Origin: an uncultured Syntrophomonadaceae bacterium
GTDB lineage: Bacteria; Bacillota; Dethiobacteria; DTU022
Direction of reading: 5' to 3'
NCBI GenBank assembly: GCA_964441025.1
Contig: CAYTXG010000003.1
Location: 63,527-127,526, forward strand
DNA length: 64,000 nucleotides
The translations under genes and the position numbers were made by a program. The notes under the pieces are model-generated. The model saw nothing but the letters and a program-made list of their open reading frames with translations, ran no database searches and was not told the DNA's origin. Every line of letters starts with the position of its first letter. Position 1 is the first letter of the stretch. Below are positions 3,485 to 31,330 of the stretch, piece by piece.

Positions 3485-4696
3485 TCAATCCCGCATAAAA
3501 AAGATGTAGTAGGTGCGGGCCAGGGCCTCGGCAAGGTAAGGGAGGGAGCGCAGCGCCTCATCAATACTGTTTTCATGGCCGCCCACTTCGATCAGCAGAG
3601 CACAGGGGTGCAGGTCCTGGTTATAGGTAAAATTTCGCTCATAAAGGCCTCTGGAAAGGCCCGGTAAAACTGCCTCCAGTTCTTTATCCAGGACCAGGGC
3701 CAGCCGCAGGTTTTCCTGGTACAGGGGGTTATGGCTGCCGACAACGAGGAGGATCGCTGCATAGTCCTCCCCCCCCAGCCTGGCTGTGGTCTTGTCCCTG
3801 GCGACGCCGTCGCGGTGCAAATCGATGATCATCTTGATCCCGCTGTTGCCGGCAAGTTTCCCCTCGATCACCGGTCGGATCTTGCTGTAGGAATAACTCC
3901 GCGGCTGATCATAAACACCGCAATGGTGGAGCACCTGCAGACCGTAGTTTTCCTCGAGCAGCCTCACCAGCTTTTCGCCAACGGTGACAACAGTACCGCC
4001 TGATGAAGCGGGATCCCCGGAAGAGACAATAAAAGCCTCGCTGGCGTGAGTGTGAAAAAGTAAAATCGGTGCGTCTCCGTAATCCGGAATCGGAAAGGGA
4101 AAGAGCGAGCCTCCCCAGGGGGGGGCAGCCGGATCAGCAGGCTGAACCGGTAAGTCCGGCTCACTGCCGCCCGGTGCATCGGCGGAGGGCGAGCACTGCA
4201 CCGGCAGGGAAACCCGGGGGGCCCCCCCAAGCTCAAGCTCCAGAACAGTGCAGGGATCGCGGGGATCAATGCCCGTCAGGAAGCGCACCATCACGCAGAT
4301 AGACCCGTAAATCTGCCCGTCACCGGAAAAGGGGGGCGGCTCGAGACCCGGTATTTCATATCCCAGAATCTGCTGTAAAAAACGGGAGTACGGACTATCC
4401 GCACTCCGCCACCCGGGCTCACGCTTATCGCCCGGCTCAGGAGAGCCCGGCGCCTGCTGAAGAACCGGAGGCCGGATCAAACCGCAGTAGCTAAGCAGAA
4501 GCAGGAGCAGAAGCAGCGTCGCGGCGGCAACGATCTTCTGTCGCCGCGACAGTGTTGGGACAGCTTTCTGCCTGCGCTTGCTTCTCCTTCCGACAAAAAC
4601 ATAGGCCCCACCCCGGCTTTTTCGCCCGGGGGTGCCCCGCCGGTCCGGCGGGCTCGTCCGTCCCGGCCTCCCTGTGATTGTTTTACGATTCAACAA
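3485..4696 (-). CDS. spoIIP: Stage II sporulation protein P (SpoIIP), TTG start
   Basis: Motifs FHTHASEAF and IDLHRDG, and a C-terminal MurNAc-amidase-like domain. Poly-Leu transmembrane segment. GGAGGAG RBS then TTG. Neighbours hrcA as in Bacillus. Confidence 0.8.
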   Translation of the reverse strand: MLNRKTITGRPGRTSPPDRRGTPGRKSRGGAYVFVGRRSKRRQKAVPTLSRRQKIVAAATLLLLLLLLSYCGLIRPPVLQQAPGSPEPGDKREPGWRSADSPYSRFLQQILGYEIPGLEPPPFSGDGQIYGSICVMVRFLTGIDPRDPCTVLELELGGAPRVSLPVQCSPSADAPGGSEPDLPVQPADPAAPPWGGSLFPFPIPDYGDAPILLFHTHASEAFIVSSGDPASSGGTVVTVGEKLVRLLEENYGLQVLHHCGVYDQPRSYSYSKIRPVIEGKLAGNSGIKMIIDLHRDGVARDKTTARLGGEDYAAILLVVGSHNPLYQENLRLALVLDKELEAVLPGLSRGLYERNFTYNQDLHPCALLIEVGGHENSIDEALRSLPYLAEALARTYYIFFMRD

Positions 4697-4790
4697 ATCT
4701 CCTCCGCCGGCTGCAGAATAATTAAATATATGCGGAGGAAAAATTATTTATGCGGTGGGCTGGACAGGCTCAGGAACAGGATCGGCTCTT

Positions 4791-7154: not shown

Positions 7155-9077
7155 ATGCCTGACAACGTAGCGGTAAAAATACTGAAAGAACACCTTGTTA
7201 GCGGCCGGCTGCGGCAGGGAGAGGAGATCGCCATCCGCATCGACCAGACGCTGACGCAGGATGCCACCGGCACCATGGCCTGTCTACAGTTTGAAGCGCT
7301 GGGCAGATCGCGGGTCAGCACCGAACTCTCAGTAAGCTACATTGATCACAACACCATCCAGGGCAGCTTCGAAAACGCCGATGACCACCGTTACCTGCAA
7401 TCAACGGCAGCCCGCTACGGAATCCACTTTTCCCGCCCCGGCAATGGGATCTGCCACCAGGTTCACCTGGAGCGCTTTGGCATTCCGGGGAAAACCCTTC
7501 TCGGCTCGGACAGCCATACACCCACGGGGGGCGGCCTGGGTATGCTGGCCATCGGTGCTGGAGGGCTGGATATAGCGGTAGCCATGGCCGGCTCCCCTTA
7601 CTATCTGAACATGCCGGGAGTGCTCCGGGTAAAACTCATGGGAGCGCTGCCTCCCTGGTGCGGAGCCAAGGATGTAATCCTGGAGCTGCTCCGCCGCCTC
7701 ACCGTTAAGGGAGGTGTGGGCCGGATTATCGAGTACGGCGGCCCGGGTGCAGCCCTGCTGACGGTCCCCCAGCGGGCCACGATCACCAATATGGGCGCCG
7801 AACTGGGAGCAACCTCCTCCATATTCCCCAGCGATGAGCAAACCCGAAGTTTTCTTTCCTCCCAGGGGCGAGGGGGGGCCTGGAGAGAGCTGCAGGCTGA
7901 TCCGGACGCCCTTTATGACGATGAGATCACCCTTGAGCTGGACAAACTTGAGCCGCTGGCAGCCTGCCCGCACAGCCCCGATGCAGTCAAATCCCTCCGC
8001 GAAATTGGCCCCCTCCCTGTGGACCAGGTCGCCATCGGCAGCTGCACAAATTCCTCTTTTCAGGATCTGCTCCTCGTTGCGGAGATGCTGGAGGGTAAAA
8101 CCGTCCACAGGCGCGTCAGCCTGGTGATCGCGCCCGGTTCGCGCCAGGTTTTATTGATGCTGGCGCGCAGTGGAGCCCTTGAGAAGCTGATTGCCGCGGG
8201 GGCAAGGGTTCTCGAACCGGCCTGCGGCCCCTGCATCGGGATGGGACAGGCCCCTCCCTCGGGCTCCCTGTCGGTGCGCACATTCAACAGAAATTTTCAG
8301 GGGCGCTGCGGCACGGCAGATGCATCGGTTTATCTCACCGGCCCGGCGGCGGCGGCAGCGGCAGCCCTGCGCGGCTGCCTCACCGATCCCCGGGCACTGG
8401 GAGAACCTCCGGAGCTGCCTGAGGCGCCGCCGCCCATAATAGATGATAATATGATCATCAGCCCGCCTGAAAACAGCGGCAAAGTGGAGATTGTCCGCGG
8501 CCCCAATATCAAGCCTCTGCCCCTGAACAACCCCCTGACAGGCGATCTATCCATGACCCTCCTGCTGAAGACAGGGGATCATGTTACCACCGATCAGATC
8601 ATGCCCGCCGGGGCCGGGGTTTTACCTTTGCGCTCAAATATTCCGGCGATAAGCGAGTATGTTTTTGCGCCCCTTGATCAGAGTTTCTCCCGGCGGGCCC
8701 GGAAAGCCGGCAGCGGGCTCGTTGTCGGCGGAGAGAATTACGGCCAGGGCTCGAGCCGGGAGCATGCCGCTCTGGCGCCCATGTATCTCGGAGTAAAGGC
8801 GGTCCTGGCGAAGTCTTTTGCCCGGATCCACCATACCAACCTGGTCAATTTTGGGATCATCCCCCTGATTTTTCAATCCCCGGCCGACTATGATCTGCTG
8901 CAGCAGGATGATTGCCTGGTAATCAAAAACGTGCATGAACAGCTGGCCGGGGGGAGCATCACCATCACCAACTGCACCCGGGGCTGCTCTTTTACGGTAA
9001 GGCATGAACTCTCGCCGCGCCAGCTCGGGATAATCAAGGCGGGCGGGCTCTTATTGGAGGTTGGAGGTCGGAAGTAG
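7155..9077 (+). CDS. Aconitate hydratase (640-aa 'putative/Aquifex-type' aconitase family)
   Basis: N-terminus KILKEHLVSG...IDQTLTQDATGTMA. Cluster ligand region LGSDSHTPTGGGLGMLAIG and CGPCIGMG. C-terminal swivel domain GENYGQGSSREHAA. Confidence 0.85.
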   Translation: MPDNVAVKILKEHLVSGRLRQGEEIAIRIDQTLTQDATGTMACLQFEALGRSRVSTELSVSYIDHNTIQGSFENADDHRYLQSTAARYGIHFSRPGNGICHQVHLERFGIPGKTLLGSDSHTPTGGGLGMLAIGAGGLDIAVAMAGSPYYLNMPGVLRVKLMGALPPWCGAKDVILELLRRLTVKGGVGRIIEYGGPGAALLTVPQRATITNMGAELGATSSIFPSDEQTRSFLSSQGRGGAWRELQADPDALYDDEITLELDKLEPLAACPHSPDAVKSLREIGPLPVDQVAIGSCTNSSFQDLLLVAEMLEGKTVHRRVSLVIAPGSRQVLLMLARSGALEKLIAAGARVLEPACGPCIGMGQAPPSGSLSVRTFNRNFQGRCGTADASVYLTGPAAAAAAALRGCLTDPRALGEPPELPEAPPPIIDDNMIISPPENSGKVEIVRGPNIKPLPLNNPLTGDLSMTLLLKTGDHVTTDQIMPAGAGVLPLRSNIPAISEYVFAPLDQSFSRRARKAGSGLVVGGENYGQGSSREHAALAPMYLGVKAVLAKSFARIHHTNLVNFGIIPLIFQSPADYDLLQQDDCLVIKNVHEQLAGGSITITNCTRGCSFTVRHELSPRQLGIIKAGGLLLEVGGRK

Positions 9078-9090
9078 GAGGTTGGAAAGG
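9056..9090. repeat. GGAGG-rich 35-nt repeat (copy A) overlapping the aconitase stop codon
   Basis: GGAGGTTGGAGGTCGGAAGTAGGAGGTTGGAAAGG. It is 29/35 identical to the reverse complement of 21131..21166. Confidence 0.5.
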
Positions 9091-9107
9091 CAGGGCAAGG
9101 CTGCGAT

Positions 9108-9500
9108 TTAGTCTCCCGGGATTCTTTTGCCATAGGCGACGGCCACGGCGGCGGCAAAGGGCGGTTCGTGGGTCATGGACAGGGCAATCCGGCTGATGCC
9201 CCCATCAGCGGCCCTGGAGGCGGCACAACCTGAAAGCCGCACCCGGGGCGGCCTGCCGGGTAGTGCGATGATCTCCACATCCTGCCATGACGCCGGGGCA
9301 TAGCCGCATCCTATTGCCTTTAAAACCGCCTCCTTGGCGGCGAAGCGGGCGGCCATGGCCGGGAAAAGAGGGCGCCGCGGCAGAAGCAGAGAGAGCTCGG
9401 CGGTGCTAAAAAGCCGCCTTAAAAAGCGCCGCGGGCGGCGGCGGTAAGCCCGCTCGATCCGGGCTATAGAAACCAGGTCAACACCCACGCCGGCAACCAT
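9108..9500 (-). CDS. acpS: Holo-[acyl-carrier-protein] synthase (AcpS)
   Basis: 130 aa. MVAGVGVDLVSIARIER...FAAKEAVLKAIG. Confidence 0.85.
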   Translation of the reverse strand: MVAGVGVDLVSIARIERAYRRRPRRFLRRLFSTAELSLLLPRRPLFPAMAARFAAKEAVLKAIGCGYAPASWQDVEIIALPGRPPRVRLSGCAASRAADGGISRIALSMTHEPPFAAAVAVAYGKRIPGD

Positions 9501-16651: not shown

Positions 16652-16698
16652 GCATTTACTTTGTCGACTAGCATTTACTTTGTCGACTAGCATTTTTA
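16652..16698. repeat. Tandem direct repeat, 2.4 copies of GCATTTACTTTGTCGACTA
   Basis: Seen directly; sits between the thrC stop and the codY promoter. Confidence 0.6.
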
Positions 16699-16833: not shown

Positions 16834-17616
16834 ATGATAACTTCGCCACTTCTAGAAAAATCTCGTCGTATCAACCAGCATTTGCAGAAAGATGCCAGCC
16901 GGCATGTGGACTTTAACAAGCTGGCTGAAGTCTTGAAAGATCTGGTCCAGGCAAACACCTATATCGCAGACAGCACAGGTAAAATCCTGGGGTGGTCCCA
17001 ACTCTACGACGTAGATTGTGAGCTGCTGTTCGAAGGGGCAGCGGATGATTTATTCTTTACCAAGGAATTTTGCAGAGACTTTTTGATGAAAGACGACCGG
17101 GAGCATATCAATGTTCACCAAAAAAACAAAAGCTGCCTCTTTGTTGAAGGGGAAAAATGCAGCTACAGCAACAGGTATCTCTCTACAATCCCCATTATCT
17201 GGGGGGACAAGCGGCTGGGCACACTATTCCTGGCCCGCTTTGAAAAACCTTTTAACACAGATGACCTTGTACTTCTGGAAATAAAATCAATTGTCGTCGG
17301 AATGGAGATGTATCGCCTGAGCGTAGCAATGAAGAACCGGGAGCTCCGCCAAAGAAACAACGCCAGGCTGGCGCTGGATACTCTCTCTTATTCCGAATAC
17401 CAGGCCATCAAAAAGGTCCTTGAAGAGCTGGATGGGGAAAGGGGTTTTCTGGTAGCCAGCAGGATTGCCGACGAGCTTGGGATCACCCGCTCTGTAATAG
17501 TTAACGCCATTCGCAAGTTTGAAAGCGCCGGAGTAATTGAGTCAAGATCGCTGGGCATGAAAGGAACCCATATCCGGGTGCTGAACACTCACCTGTGGGA
17601 GTTTCTGGATAAATAA
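16834..17616 (+). CDS. codY: GTP-sensing pleiotropic repressor CodY
   Basis: 260 aa. GAF-like N-terminal domain. C-terminal wHTH ASRIADELGITRSVIVNAIRKFESAGVIESRSLGMKGT. Confidence 0.9.
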   Translation: MITSPLLEKSRRINQHLQKDASRHVDFNKLAEVLKDLVQANTYIADSTGKILGWSQLYDVDCELLFEGAADDLFFTKEFCRDFLMKDDREHINVHQKNKSCLFVEGEKCSYSNRYLSTIPIIWGDKRLGTLFLARFEKPFNTDDLVLLEIKSIVVGMEMYRLSVAMKNRELRQRNNARLALDTLSYSEYQAIKKVLEELDGERGFLVASRIADELGITRSVIVNAIRKFESAGVIESRSLGMKGTHIRVLNTHLWEFLDK

Positions 17617-17827: not shown

Positions 17828-18913
17828 TCACACATCGGAAGACGACGGACAGGGCACGCAAAGCACGTCGCAGGGTTTGAGCACTTTCAGATTGGTGATC
17901 TGCGGATTGGCGGTTGCAAGGGCATCCACGGAGACACCGTACCTCTGCGCAATGGTAAACATGGTATCGCCAGCCACAACTGTGTAGCGCCCCTTGAAAC
18001 CGGGCGGACAGGACACCGGCTCCCGGCATGTTGGAGGCGGCGGCCCACCACCGGGCACACAGAGCACATCACAGGGGAAAATCTGGCTGGGATCACTGAT
18101 CTGCGGATTGGCAGCCGCAAGGGCGTCCACAGAGACACCGTACCTCTGCGCAATGGTAAACATGGTATCGCCAGCCACAACTGTGTAGCGCCCCTTGAAA
18201 CCGGGCGGACAGGACACCGGCTCCCGGCATGTTGGAGGCGGCGGCCCACCACCGGGCACACAGAGCACATCACAGGGGAAAATCTGGCTGGGATCACTGA
18301 TCTGCGGATTGGCAGCCGCAAGGGCGTCCACAGAGACACCGTACCTCTGCGCAATGGTAAACATGGTATCGCCAGCCACAACTGTGTAGCGCCCCTTGAA
18401 ACCGGGCGGACAGGACACCGGCTCCCGGCATGTTGGAGGCGGCGGCCCACCACCGGGCACACAGAGCACATCACAGGGGAAAATCTGGCTGGGATCACTG
18501 ATCTGCGGATTGGCGGCTATCAGCGCATCAAGAGAGACCCCGAAACGCTGTGCAATAAAGTACATGGTATCGCCCGCCACAACTGTGTAGCGCCCCATAA
18601 AACCGGGCGGGCAGCGATCCGGTTTCCGGCATGCAGTTGACGGCGGTCCGCCGGGAACACAGAGCACATCGCCGGGATAAATCAGGCCAGGATCGCTGAT
18701 CTGCGGATTGGCGGCTATCAGCGCATCAAGAGAGACCCCGAAACGCTGTGCAATAAAAAACATGGTGTCACCGGGGACAACGGTGTAACGGCCCTGGAAA
18801 CCGGGCGGGCAAAAAGCCGGATGCCGCCCCCCTCCTTTAGGCTTTATACCTGTAAATGAAATAGAGGCTTCGCCGGAGCCCGGAAAGGAACCGCTGCTGT
18901 AATGTCTGACCAT
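17828..18913 (-). CDS. Cys/Pro-rich protein with five LysM domains, no signal peptide (spore-coat SafA-like)
   Basis: The unit GRYTVVAGDTMFTIAQRYGVSVDALAAANPQISDPSQIFPCDVLCVPGGGPPPPTCREPVSCPPGFK repeats five times. Strong RBS. A CATATAATA sigma-K -10-like element lies upstream. Confidence 0.8.
   Translation of the reverse strand: MVRHYSSGSFPGSGEASISFTGIKPKGGGRHPAFCPPGFQGRYTVVPGDTMFFIAQRFGVSLDALIAANPQISDPGLIYPGDVLCVPGGPPSTACRKPDRCPPGFMGRYTVVAGDTMYFIAQRFGVSLDALIAANPQISDPSQIFPCDVLCVPGGGPPPPTCREPVSCPPGFKGRYTVVAGDTMFTIAQRYGVSVDALAAANPQISDPSQIFPCDVLCVPGGGPPPPTCREPVSCPPGFKGRYTVVAGDTMFTIAQRYGVSVDALAAANPQISDPSQIFPCDVLCVPGGGPPPPTCREPVSCPPGFKGRYTVVAGDTMFTIAQRYGVSVDALATANPQITNLKVLKPCDVLCVPCPSSSDV
17880..18890. 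repeat. Five 201-bp tandem repeats inside the LysM gene; the middle three are nearly identical
   Basis: Plus-strand track ORFs at 17994, 18195 and 18396 are identical 64-aa artefacts spaced exactly 201 nt apart. Confidence 0.85.
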
Positions 18914-20229: not shown

Positions 20230-21015
20230 CTATCCTGGGCGCAGCAAAGGAGCATGTTGTGGAGCGCACCGGCCGGCAAGATACCGCCCTGCCCCCCGGT
20301 CCACCATCACTGTAACCCGGGGATGGGCCTGCAGCAGCGAGGCGGGCACCGCGGTGGTAAGCGGCCCCCTGACGGTCTCCCAGATTGCCGCGGCCTTATT
20401 CCCGCCCGATGCCAGGAGCAGAATACAGCGCGCTTTCATGATCGTCCCCAGGCCCATGGTCAGCGCCATGCGAGGCACATCGGCGGTTTTCTCAAAAAAG
20501 CGGCTGTTGGCGGTAATGGTCTCCCCTGATAGATCGGCCAGGTGGGTTTTCGCCTGCAGCCTTTCACCGGGCTCGTTAAAACCGATATGGCCGTTAACGC
20601 CGATACCCAAAACCTGCAAATCGATCCCGCCGGCCCGCCTGATTCTCTGTTCGTAACGGAGGCATTCCTCCGCCGCATCATCGGGATCCCCTTTCAAAAT
20701 ATGTGCCCTGGCGGCACTTATCCCCGCGGGCTCCCAGAAGTGACGCTGCATGAATTGGTAGTAACTCTGCGGGTTCTCCCTGGTAATCGGATAATACTCA
20801 TCCAGGTTGAAGGTAGTAACCCTGCCGAAATTTACATGGCCATGTTGCACCATTTCGATTAGATCGCGGTAAAGACCCAGCGGAGTTGAGCCGGTGGCCA
20901 GCCCGAGAACTGCCGCCGGATTCGAGCAAACCGTTTTCGCCACAAGCATGGCTGCCTGCCTGCTCAATGATTCATAGTCGCGCAGGATGATCAATTTAAT
21001 GGGGATCACTTCCAT
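20230..21015 (-). CDS. nagB: Glucosamine-6-phosphate deaminase NagB
   Basis: LGLATGSTP...FNLDEY...GIGVNGHIGFNEPG motifs. Confidence 0.85.
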   Translation of the reverse strand: MEVIPIKLIILRDYESLSRQAAMLVAKTVCSNPAAVLGLATGSTPLGLYRDLIEMVQHGHVNFGRVTTFNLDEYYPITRENPQSYYQFMQRHFWEPAGISAARAHILKGDPDDAAEECLRYEQRIRRAGGIDLQVLGIGVNGHIGFNEPGERLQAKTHLADLSGETITANSRFFEKTADVPRMALTMGLGTIMKARCILLLASGGNKAAAIWETVRGPLTTAVPASLLQAHPRVTVMVDRGAGRYLAGRCAPQHAPLLRPG

Positions 21016-21130
21016 CCATCCGGTATTGGCAATGCAACCCCGGCACCTGTGGGGTTTTTTAGATCCATCTATCCCCTTTTCAAAGGGACACCTGGATGCT
21101 GGAAACAGGGGCCGCAGAGCTCTTGCCCCT

Positions 21131-21166
21131 GATTTTCCAACCTCCGACTTCCAACCTCTAACCTCT
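21131..21166. repeat. GGAGG-rich 35-nt repeat (copy B, reverse orientation) overlapping the stop of the 21158..22033 gene
   Basis: Minus-strand reading AGAGGTTAGAGGTTGGAAGTCGGAGGTTGGAAAATC, 29/35 identical to copy A. Confidence 0.5.
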
Positions 21167-22033
21167 GATCAGCGGCCTGGTCAGGCAGGTGGGCCCACCG
21201 CCGCCTTTCAGCGAGATTTCTTCGCCGGGATAAGTATAAACCTCGGCCCCTGCCTTTTCCAACGCTTTCCTGGTGCGCGGATTGCCTTCAATCATGATGC
21301 ACTTGCGGGGCTCGAAAGCCAAAACATTGCAGGCAAAGCTTTCGTACTCTTCAGGCGGCACCTCGATGAGCCTGATCCCCCTTTCCAGCAGATTGCTGCG
21401 GAAGGGCACAATCATCAGGGGTGAAAACACCACCGCCAGATCAGAATCTATGGGACTGATGATACTCATAAGATGCAGGCATTCCTCGGGGCCGTTCCCG
21501 TGCGGCAGGGGCACTTCGATAATTTCATCCACCAGCCCTTTGGTCAGCTCCCGGAACTGGCGCACACCTTCGCGGTTGGTCCGGTAACTGAGACCTACAG
21601 CCAGGGTTTTCTCATCGAGCCAGAGAAAATCGCCGCCCTCCGCTGTCCCGGGGGCAGTAATGGAACCGAGAATGGGAGCGCCTTTTTCTTTAAGAAACCC
21701 GCCGATGACCTCCGCTTCAACGCGGCGCTGTTCCTTGCCCATATTCAAAAGGACAGCGCCCCCTCTGGTAATCACCACCGGATCGCGGGGATAGAGTGAA
21801 TCGGGCGAGACCCTTTCGCTCCCGGGCAGTTCAATGACAGTATCAACATGTTCTTTCAGCAGCCCCACGAAAGATTCATATTCCGCTTCTGCTTTTTTAA
21901 AATCGGGGCGGGCCGGATAGTAAAGTTTGCGCCACCAGGAATCGATATGCTCCTGGCCCAACCAGGCGCTGCGCACAGGCTTCACCAGCACGCTTTCGAT
22001 TTTAGCAATCTCCGATTGACCGTCAAGTTTCAA
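21158..22033 (-). CDS. Amidinotransferase-superfamily protein (DDAH / arginine-deiminase-like), TTG start
   Basis: 291 aa. GGDFLWL and a C-terminal GGGGPTCLTRPL putative catalytic Cys. GGGGGAGAG RBS. Confidence 0.6.
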   Translation of the reverse strand: MKLDGQSEIAKIESVLVKPVRSAWLGQEHIDSWWRKLYYPARPDFKKAEAEYESFVGLLKEHVDTVIELPGSERVSPDSLYPRDPVVITRGGAVLLNMGKEQRRVEAEVIGGFLKEKGAPILGSITAPGTAEGGDFLWLDEKTLAVGLSYRTNREGVRQFRELTKGLVDEIIEVPLPHGNGPEECLHLMSIISPIDSDLAVVFSPLMIVPFRSNLLERGIRLIEVPPEEYESFACNVLAFEPRKCIMIEGNPRTRKALEKAGAEVYTYPGEEISLKGGGGPTCLTRPLIRG

Positions 22034-27521: not shown

Positions 27522-27622
27522 AAGATGGTGCCAAGGGGGGGCCGGGCGTACCCGGCTGAGATAGAACTGAGCTGTTCTGACCCTTCGAACCTGACCTGGG
27601 TAATGCCAGCGTAGGGAACATA
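27522..27622 (+). promoter_or_regulatory. TPP (thi-box) riboswitch
   Basis: GGGGGGCCGGGCGUACCCGGCUGAGA...GACCCUUCGAACCUGACCUGGGUAAUGCCAGCGUAGGGAA matches the THI element consensus, including CUGAGA and AAUGCCAGCGUAGGGAA. Confidence 0.9.
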
Positions 27623-27639
27623 CTTGCCGCCTTGATCAT

Positions 27640-30476: not shown

Positions 30477-30615
30477 ACAGATCCACGGGGCGGCAGAAAA
30501 TCAGGGTCCCCCAAGCCGGCCCGGTATAATGCAGAGAGCGCGGTGCAGACATGACAGCGCCAAATTTCCAGGTGATGCCGGGCCGTGAGGAACCCCTTTA
30601 AAAAAAATGAACCCA

Positions 30616-30683
30616 CAGAATATATCAGTAGAACCGTCCCCGTGATATACAGAATATATCAGAAGAACCGTCCCCCTGATATA
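30616..30683. repeat. 34-bp tandem direct repeat x2; the second copy encodes the last 8 codons and stop of the TPK gene
   Basis: CAGAATATATCAGTAGAACCGTCCCCGTGATATA / CAGAATATATCAGAAGAACCGTCCCCCTGATATA. Confidence 0.8.
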
Positions 30684-31330
30684 CGGGCGGTGTGGACGGC
30701 CAGGAGCAGGCCCGAGGCCGCAGTAACTCTGGCTGTTTCAGAAATCAGCTCATTGCTCAAACCGCGGGTGGAGGCAAAGTTAAGGGTCTCTCCGTGAAGG
30801 GGATACTTCAGCCCCTGCGTGGTGACACCCCTTGTCTCCGGGGTAAGCGAAAACAGGGAGAGATAGTCGCCTGCCCGACCAAACTGGATCAGCTCGTGAT
30901 CCATGAGCCGCACCGTCTGCCGCTCATCAATAATCCTGGCTGGAATACCGGCTCTGAAGGGAATTGTCAGCAGGAAAAGGTTGATCAGGGCATGGTCGAC
31001 CCTTTTTCCTCCCAGGGCGCCGCATAGAATAATTTCCGCCGGCCGGAACGATACGGCATAGTGAAGGGCCATCTCCAGATCCGACTGCTCCTGATCCAGG
31101 AGAGGGTTGCAGATCCATTCCACCGGTAACTGCTGCAGTTTTCGGCGCAGCGCAGGGTCAAGGGAGTCGCTGTCACCGATCACCGAGGAGGGGTGCATCC
31201 CCATGGCCAGCACATGACGGCTCCCCCCGTCTGCACAGATAATCCGGTCTTCCCGGTTGATCTGTCCGCGGTAGAAATCAGGATCACATAAGTCACCGTT
31301 GGCAAATAGAAAAATCCGCCGGCCCCTCAT
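30659..31330 (-). CDS. thiN: Thiamine pyrophosphokinase
   Basis: 223 aa. ICADGG...VIGDSDSL (GDxDS motif) and a C-terminal thiamine-binding domain. Confidence 0.75.
   Translation of the reverse strand: MRGRRIFLFANGDLCDPDFYRGQINREDRIICADGGSRHVLAMGMHPSSVIGDSDSLDPALRRKLQQLPVEWICNPLLDQEQSDLEMALHYAVSFRPAEIILCGALGGKRVDHALINLFLLTIPFRAGIPARIIDERQTVRLMDHELIQFGRAGDYLSLFSLTPETRGVTTQGLKYPLHGETLNFASTRGLSNELISETARVTAASGLLLAVHTARISGGRFF

Follow-up and report, generated by a model that had tools for sequence, protein, structure and literature searches.

Degenerate GGARGTT-type heptamer arrays at the stop codons of two unrelated genes in a 64-kb stretch from an uncultured Bacillota bacterium

G-rich heptanucleotide repeats at gene ends have been described as GGGAATC in Xanthomonas and as GGGGAYT in Nostoc PCC 7120 (Rehm et al. 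2015, PLoS One; PMC4692102). In this class about 4 tandem 7-nt units are preferred, the arrays are mostly intergenic, and the G-rich strand is the coding strand, with the array 0-50 nt from the stop codon or overlapping it; close pairs are always convergent inverted repeats, and the location at a given gene is kept across related species while length and sequence vary (PMC4692102). An excess of transcript starts and stops was reported at the Xanthomonas repeats, and G-quadruplex (G4) formation has been proposed (PMC4692102). According to Mrazek et al. (2007), as cited in PMC4692102 and PMC4679880, heptanucleotide repeats are the most abundant class of long simple sequence repeats (SSRs) in many genomes, with polymerase slippage proposed as their origin. 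A further heptamer, TAACTGA, forms direct repeats in marine Beggiatoaceae, cyanobacteria and some Bacteroidetes, where a post-transcriptional role is suspected (MacGregor 2015, PMC4679880). Here we describe two purine-rich heptamer arrays, A and B, in 64,000 nt of contig CAYTXG010000003.1 (positions 63,527 to 127,526) from an uncultured Syntrophomonadaceae bacterium; this whole stretch is called the window, and in it the arrays overlap the stop codons of an aconitase gene and of a DDAH-like gene. The nearest named relatives of the window's proteins are from uncultured Bacillota or 'Dethiobacteria' metagenome-assembled genomes (MAGs), largely from anaerobic digesters.

The two arrays are as follows.

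9056-9090, + strand: array A (copy A), GGAGGTTGGAGGTCGGAAGTAGGAGGTTGGAAAGG; five degenerate heptamers, GGAGGTT GGAGGTC GGAAGTA GGAGGTT GGAAAGG
21132-21166, - strand: array B (copy B), AGAGGTTAGAGGTTGGAAGTCGGAGGTTGGAAAAT; units AGAGGTT AGAGGTT GGAAGTC GGAGGTT GGAAAAT

With moderate confidence, we regard A and B as independent, vertically inherited, degenerate heptanucleotide microsatellites of the G-rich class that lies on the coding strand at stop codons. The GGARGTT-type unit and the Bacillota host are new to this already described, little-studied class, in which we file the arrays because they share its structure and position, although the G3-G4 tracts are absent. Tandem Repeats Finder reported a period of 7 at 9054-9086, and each array consists of five in-phase, head-to-tail units of the form RGARGYN, not of the internal 10-nt GGAGGTTGGA units that an earlier note on this DNA had read in them. 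The central observation of that note, a 35-nt repeat at the ends of two genes that includes the stop codon of each, was confirmed, and its placement of copy B at 21131..21166 holds for locus and orientation, with the extent now refined by one nucleotide as listed above. In both arrays the purine-rich strand is the coding strand of the host gene (aconitase for A, DDAH-like for B; 74-80% purine on the sense strand), and the stop codon of the co-oriented gene lies inside the array, as a TAG at the junction of units 3 and 4 in A and of units 1 and 2 in B. Each of these stops arises where the other copy carries a non-stop variant. On the antisense strand, C outnumbers G by 19 to 1 in A and by 15 to 1 in B, and there are 11-14 YC dimers. 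Since A and B lie on opposite strands within one stretch of uniformly negative GC skew, each co-oriented with its gene, array orientation follows the gene and not replication, and replication-strand bias was rejected as an explanation.

The arrays exceed chance expectation in the window. An 18-mer, GGAAGTNGGAGGTTGGAA, gave 4 overlapping matches with up to 3 mismatches, at the A and B loci only, where 0.19 were expected in 64 kb, and a heptamer-array detector found 2 arrays against a mean of 0.04 in 100 Markov-1 simulations. No third copy was found in the 64-kb window. A and B are identical at 29/35 positions (83%), a level reached with A or B by 22-27% of arrays from unrelated genomes, all of which had been selected by the 18-mer common to A and B; because so many reach it, this identity is usual for any two arrays of this heptamer. 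No terminal inverted repeats, inverted partner, or flanking or target duplication were seen by eye at A or B, and no formal search was made. RNA folding of A and B was no better than that of shuffled sequences (z = -1.24 and +0.81), and the arrays were largely unpaired. Rfam gave no match at the gathering threshold and only sub-threshold noise in permissive searches, and no intrinsic terminator (GC-rich hairpin plus U-run) was found on the gene strands at either array. With G4 energies included, ViennaRNA predicted a two-tetrad G4 in GGAGGUUGGAGG of A (-19.3 vs -6.7 kcal/mol at 37 C) and none in B. The G-runs of both arrays are GG doublets only, with G3 or longer tracts absent.

At the A locus, the following features bear on how the array came to encode protein. 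Loci of relatives and of other genomes are given by L numbers.

7155..9077, + strand: aconitate hydratase (aconitase) gene, 640 amino acids (aa), PF00330/PF00694
9054..9077, + strand: array-encoded aconitase tail and stop, TTG GAG GTT GGA GGT CGG AAG TAG, i.e. LEVGGRK-stop, with TAG at 9075-9077
9108..9500, - strand: convergent 130-aa gene, 4'-phosphopantetheinyl transferase family in relatives, with PF01648 on the syntenic gene in L121, L126 and L129

Every syntenic aconitase locus (L121-123, 87% protein identity; L128, 83%; L126/127 and L129/130, 80%) carries exactly five heptamers in the same place. In L129 the gene ends CTG CTT AAC CTG GCC CGG ATT GAA GGT TAG (...LLNLARIEG-stop), followed by AGGTT, and the array is almost wholly non-coding. 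The window clade is 13 nt shorter than L129 just upstream of the array, which shifts the frame by one; because of this difference, translation runs seven codons into A and stops at the TAG between units 3 and 4. The earlier note's statement that the element encodes the C-terminal residues is therefore correct for aconitase. Tails in the array-bearing clade differ in both sequence and length (LEVGGRK, LEVKG, LEVRGWK, MEVRGQK and LDVKGRGGVPSPPM), as fits translation running into a drifting repeat. They also differ from those of array-less relatives: the window-clade protein ends ...GGLLLEVGGRK-stop, and more distant orthologues without the array end ...GGLLNYTRxxx or NHTRRG-stop, the latter spelled AGG GGC TAG in the non-syntenic, array-less aconitase gene of Desulfofundulus kuznetsovii. 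These alignments indicate that array A is older than the window clade and that the gene end slid into a pre-existing downstream repeat, with no insertion. As judged from the same alignments, the coding overlap is secondary, an L129-like array at the last codons having been pulled into frame by the 13-nt difference. Beyond the stop, 13/35 nt of A are non-coding and form the first 13 nt of the 30-nt spacer (9078-9107) that separates the aconitase stop from that of the convergent gene. No terminator-like site was found in this spacer on either strand, and thus the transcripts of the two genes probably overlap, or else their termination depends on a factor.

At the B locus, the coding overlap is smaller and of a different kind.

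21158..22033, - strand: DDAH/arginine-deiminase-family gene, 291 aa, PF19420/PF02274, ending ...CTG ATC AGA GGT TAG (...RPLIRG-stop), with TAG at 21158-21160
21106..21131, - strand: hairpin directly downstream of B, CAGGGGC-N12-GCCCCUG, without a strong U-tract
20230..21015, - strand: nagB-like gene (glucosamine-6-phosphate isomerase family), with PF01182 on the syntenic gene in L124, L131 and L136

Array B in the orthologous loci (protein identity in brackets) reads as follows.

L124/125 (88%): AGAGGTT AGAGCTT GGAGGTA GGAGGTT GGATAAT, 5 units
L136 (82%): AGAAGTT AGAAGTT GGAAGTC GGA..., 3.4 units
L137 (79%): AGAGGTT AGAGGTT, decayed beyond, about 2 units
L131 (79%), syntenic with the B locus: AGA GGC TAA, 0 units

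Only two codons of the DDAH-like gene, AGA GGT, and its TAG lie inside the array, not the last three codons as had been proposed, and 27/35 nt of B lie past the stop. The tail ...CLTRPL[LIF]R-x-stop is found throughout the DDAH family with its length unchanged, and the last residue is G or S among close homologues (LIRG or LIRS), which corresponds to an A/G change at unit position 4. Because the tail is family-wide and the array-less orthologue ends AGA GGC TAA, array B adds nothing new to the DDAH C-terminus, and the claim that the element supplies C-terminal residues fails for this gene. From the same comparison, unit 1 of B is read as the native Arg-Gly codons, with the TAG forming at the junction of units 1 and 2. 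The L131 spacer at this locus is unalignable over its whole length. In the predicted fold, the last unit of B can lengthen the stem of the downstream hairpin by pairing with UUUCCA; L124 and L136 retain the core stem, where the comparison of only 3 sequences shows one compensatory pair. The nagB-like ATG (21015) lies 115-116 nt downstream of B, past this conserved hairpin, in agreement with the distance of about 115 nt given previously. In the same DDAH-nagB spacer, a terminator-like hairpin with a T-run (AACCCCGGCACCTGTGGGGTT TTTT; 21036-21066, +) lies on the strand opposite both flanking genes, and its T-run is not conserved in L124.

Both arrays were found at orthologous positions in relatives with 79-88% protein identity, where they have drifted in place. 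By this comparison, both are vertically inherited, old and locus-stable, and nothing found indicates mobility. L124 carries a third array (4682-4716), which lies upstream of the promoter for a thiamine pyrophosphate (TPP)-riboswitch operon and has no counterpart in the orthologous region of the window, and therefore arrays appear to be gained or lost locus by locus. Altogether, 3 distinct array loci occur in roughly 150 kb of non-redundant clade sequence, as estimated. Where one species is represented by independent assemblies (L121-123, L124/125, L126/127 and L129/130), these showed no polymorphism in unit number, and a metagenome scan for strain polymorphism with the L129 array flanks and a variable gap matched the same assembly only. 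The window itself carries a TPP riboswitch (27524-27634, +; RF00059, 61.8 bits) before a thiamine-related ABC transporter operon. At the A locus of one relative, L127 12561-13949, a 462-aa UPF0236-family gene (PF06782) separates the ACPS-family gene from the cold-shock gene; since the otherwise identical L126 lacks it, it was probably inserted recently. The family is also present in L133.

Arrays of the same heptamer occur widely in other genomes. A scan with the 18-mer, taking one genome per species, returned at least 120 loci, a sample that is biased by its query and in which open reading frames (ORFs) were called by a crude ORF caller; the results in this paragraph hold among the matches listed. 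Since 117/120 carry an array of at least 3 units by the detector, the matches are arrays and not chance hits, and N is T in nearly all of them. Carriers belong mainly to Chloroflexota, Bacteroidota, Acidobacteriota, Bacillota, Verrucomicrobiota and Planctomycetota, and include the cultured Algoriphagus iocasae, Syntrophaceticus schinkii and Carboxydothermus islandicus. The 181 arrays have a modal size of 4-5 units, and the midpoints of 89 are intergenic, where non-coding sequence makes up only about 13% of the total. The association with gene ends proposed for the two window copies holds across phyla: 21/44 arrays begin between -10 and +5 nt of the stop of a co-oriented upstream ORF, and only 4/42 do so where a convergent downstream ORF stops (Fisher p = 1e-4). 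Pfam identified each of the 10 upstream ORFs tested as a full-length housekeeping gene; among them are GlnRS, AdoHcyase, FabH, DnaN, MurB and RF3. Close inverted pairs were convergent in 19/19 cases, i.e. a G-array followed by a C-array (p = 4e-6), and GGAAGTT was twice as common as GGAGGTT; it was the commoner unit in Bacteroidota too.

In some lineages, repeated elements of 240-300 nt have convergent pairs at their two ends. A Chitinophagaceae MAG contains two such elements of about 300 nt (L076 560-920 and 1370-1730), which are homologous, with 80% identity, and bounded by convergent GGARGTT arrays; each starts with a conserved hairpin, and they resemble miniature inverted-repeat transposable elements (MITEs) with heptamer-array ends. 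In an Akkermansia MAG, an element of about 240 nt (L021 5614-5852) with convergent arrays at its ends and a long internal hairpin starts 2 nt past the stop of a gene for a pyridoxal phosphate (PLP) enzyme of Cys/Met metabolism; three further loci of this MAG, L016, L074 and L115, have similar array flanks. GGARGTT carriers (e.g. L019, L006, L043 and L075) often have adjoining GGAGATT, GGGTATT, GGATATT, AGCTGAT or TAGAATT heptamers. In the listed loci L001-L120, periods of 5, 6, 9, 10 and 11 gave 0-4 arrays each, and period 8 gave 13. The longest GGARGTT array listed, in an Anaerolineae MAG (L024 3657-3916), has 37 units (260 nt) with a 42-nt higher-order periodicity.

If A and B are microsatellites of independent origin, the heptamer would have been seeded by native gene ends spelled AGR-GGY-TAR and duplicated in place by slipped-strand events. 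Duplication of AGAGGTT would recreate T+AG, leaving the protein unchanged. We infer birth in place by slippage because array-less relatives of both genes end in Arg-Gly-stop, spelled AGR-GGC-TAR. Such arrays may have persisted since a purine-rich, structure-poor tract of mRNA right after the stop would be well tolerated. On balance, it is slightly more likely than not that the arrays have no dedicated regulatory function beyond their effect on the aconitase tail.

Several results weigh against this account. Plain slippage does not predict the strand rule, the stop-codon rule or the 19:0 orientation of pairs. Furthermore, the DDAH phylogeny is poorly resolved, so that the series of 0, 2, 3.4 and 5 units at B could be decay and not the growth expected of birth in place, and the census of the source genome covers the 64-kb window alone. 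Array A is also better conserved than the four-fold sites of aconitase: between the window and L121, L128, L126 and L129, these sites are 67, 62, 57 and 49% identical, and the array is 86, 86, 83 and 71% identical. The overall ranges are 0.57-0.86 for array A and 0.47-0.67 for four-fold sites, with Fisher p < 0.05 in 8/10 non-independent pairs. Changes in A are nearly all transitions (e.g. 9:1 and 13:2), compared with about 0.5-1.2:1 at four-fold sites, and even amino acid replacements leave the purine/pyrimidine pattern intact. Array A consists of exactly five units in five lineages, and the rest of the 30-50 nt spacer is unalignable. The identity, transitions and fixed length of A suggest selection on the nucleotide (RGARGYN) pattern, although unit-to-unit homogenisation could mimic this in the aligned sequences. 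These data would be expected if the arrays were strand-specific signals at the 3' boundary of genes, kept by selection, a reading that we consider possible but doubtful. On the mRNA, a purine-rich tract of about 30 nt with little structure after the stop, roughly one ribosome footprint, might act; at B, the tract might space the terminating ribosome from the downstream hairpin; and on the opposite strand, a C-rich, G-poor tract could serve for Rho entry or pausing where convergent or antisense transcription would run into the gene. Constraint on A across deep divergence is not the only point in favor of this reading: in the aconitase spacer, which has no terminator-like site, the array is the only conserved part; the order at B is stop, array and conserved hairpin; the antisense composition is rich in C and YC dimers and poor in G; and the strand and stop-codon rules hold across phyla in the listed matches and recur in Xanthomonas together with the excess of transcript starts and stops (PMC4692102). 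However, array B is without such constraint (1 transition and 3 transversions between the window and L124, and 0-5 units), the syntenic L131 lost or never had it, and the third array is specific to the L124 lineage. Neither array has significant predicted structure, and a Rho loading site would usually be longer than 35 nt. To our knowledge, cyanobacteria, which carry analogous arrays, have no Rho, which counts against that part of the mechanism. A broader version, in which GGARGTT, GGGAATC and GGGGAYT arrays form one pan-bacterial, strand-specific gene-end signal and the window arrays are functional members under selection, seems unlikely to us, and we give the same low weight to the idea that such a signal is read or generated by the terminating ribosome, by RNA polymerase with Rho, or by a factor with 7-nt periodicity. 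The transition-only, fixed-length evolution of array A is what points in its direction.

The remaining explanations fare worse. The earlier note had called the repeat essentially a string of Shine-Dalgarno (SD) sequences, and GGAGG, present three times in A and once in B beside two AGAGG, might bind the 16S anti-SD of 30S or 70S ribosomes after termination and serve as a sponge, as an mRNA stabiliser similar to STAB-SD, or in coupling to nagB. Bacillota use strong SD sequences, and nagB lies downstream of B and is co-oriented with it. However, the core is lost in orthologues, the units reading GAAGG AGAGG AGAAG AGAAG in L129 for A and AGAAG AGAAG GGAAG in L136 for B, positions 1 and 4 of the unit vary freely between A and G, and in the other genomes the listed arrays favor GGAAGTT twofold and are numerous in Bacteroidota. 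Bacteroidota largely do not use SD pairing. Array A has no co-oriented gene downstream, and nagB stands behind the hairpin and not 5-10 nt away. Thus, the SD likeness appears incidental, and a ribosome-binding sponge or an effect on nagB, as the note had suggested, is highly improbable. Its other suggestion, a small insertion element, extends to a mobile mini-element or to a solo end left over from a MITE-like element, with gene 3' ends as the target in either case, and is only slightly less remote. The inverted arrays that bound the L076 and L021 elements are in its favor, as is the five-unit length, with the ending GGAGGTT GGA(A/T)A, shared by the three arrays found in the window lineage. 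However, each window array stands alone, and inspection by eye, without a formal search, showed neither an inverted partner nearby nor a target duplication; orthologous conservation with drift in place at both loci, the native coding origin of unit 1 of B, the low number of copies (2 in 64 kb, and 3 loci in the clade sequence) and an A-B similarity no higher than that between arrays of unrelated phyla all argue against transposition. A G4 element, which the G-rich strand would form as DNA or as RNA and which would influence transcription or translation where the gene ends, has the predicted two-tetrad structure in A and the precedent of the Xanthomonas and Nostoc heptamers (PMC4692102) behind it. 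We judge it very improbable, as GG doublets permit two tetrads at most, no G4 is predicted for B, units such as AGAAG or GAAGG in orthologues lose the GG runs, and neither array has the G3+ tracts by which the published class is defined. Coincidence of coding sequence, for which one could cite the native Arg-Gly coding of unit 1 of B, is effectively refuted by the excess of arrays (two seen, 0.04 expected per 64 kb), by the non-coding share of 27/35 nt in B and 13/35 nt in A, and by the heptamer periodicity kept in orthologues. We also examined RNA-binding proteins, namely CsrA (GGA motifs), HutP-type recognition of NAG-N4 triplets, TRAP, Hfq and cold-shock proteins, and rejected them, since GGA and GGAGG are not conserved and the positions do not fit. 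Autoregulation by aconitase binding to its own 3' UTR was rejected because array B is unrelated to aconitase.

Reading A and B as independent microsatellites at gene ends explains the odd, clade-specific C-terminus of this aconitase as a translated microsatellite, entered after a frame-shifting length change. It also provides a caution for annotation, in that SD-like strings past stop codons are not to be taken for ribosome-binding sites. A purine-rich heptamer grammar at stop codons, formerly documented for only two other units in three species, now includes GGARGTT in several phyla. The 19:0 pair orientation and the four- to five-fold excess at co-oriented stops among the matches listed go beyond plain slippage.

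Three other repeats were noted in the window. A 201-nt unit is repeated 4.6 times (17896-18808, 90% matches) within a 361-aa ORF (17828..18913, -); as the syntenic gene in relatives has LysM domains, the units probably encode repeated domains. At 16652-16695, a perfect 19-nt direct repeat of 2.3 copies (GCATTTACTTTGTCGACTA) lies in the spacer upstream of an ORF (16834..17616) that is CodY-like by synteny with L131, and it may be an operator. Finally, a 34-nt direct repeat of 2.1 copies (ACAGAATATATCAGAAGAACCGTCCCCCTGATAT, 94% matches) was found at 30615-30684.

Among known systems, repetitive extragenic palindromes (REPs) and the bacterial interspersed mosaic elements (BIMEs) of enterobacteria are short repeats at gene 3' ends and between convergent genes, which can affect the stability of the upstream mRNA and, near a stop codon, translation termination. 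However, REPs are palindromic, though imperfectly so, fold into hairpins and owe their mobility to RAYT transposases, whereas the window arrays are non-palindromic, single direct repeats. The STAB-SD of Bacillus is a single conserved SD sequence that stabilises mRNA from its 5' end; the window arrays are likewise SD-like polypurine tracts not used for initiation, but they follow stop codons and their SD core is not conserved. Like GGARGTT-type repeats, TAACTGA repeats are directly repeated heptamers between genes that occur patchily across phyla, yet they are G-poor and lie in forward orientation immediately upstream of start codons, in contrast to purine-rich arrays at stop codons. Long period-7 SSRs and the short tandemly repeated repetitive (STRR) heptamers of cyanobacteria are heptanucleotide tandem repeats, as are the window arrays, which differ in being short and degenerate, with a stable unit number in array A. 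A literature search with the dimeric unit in either orientation returned unrelated vertebrate primers only, and a search for other reports of heptamers at stop codons returned nothing beyond PMC4692102. The class of Rehm et al. is accordingly the closest. The window arrays differ from it in the GGARGTT unit, which has GG doublets only and is without the defining G3-G4 tracts and robust G4 potential, in the host, an uncultured member of the Bacillota, with the unit itself spread over several phyla, and in density, which is low (2 per 64 kb) compared with repeats described as 'highly enriched'. The window arrays are single; GGARGTT pairs elsewhere were convergent without exception (19/19) among the matches listed, as are close pairs of the described repeats. 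The window arrays share with the class the head-to-tail 7-nt units, five per array and thus near the preferred 4, and both lie on the coding strand and contain the co-oriented stop.

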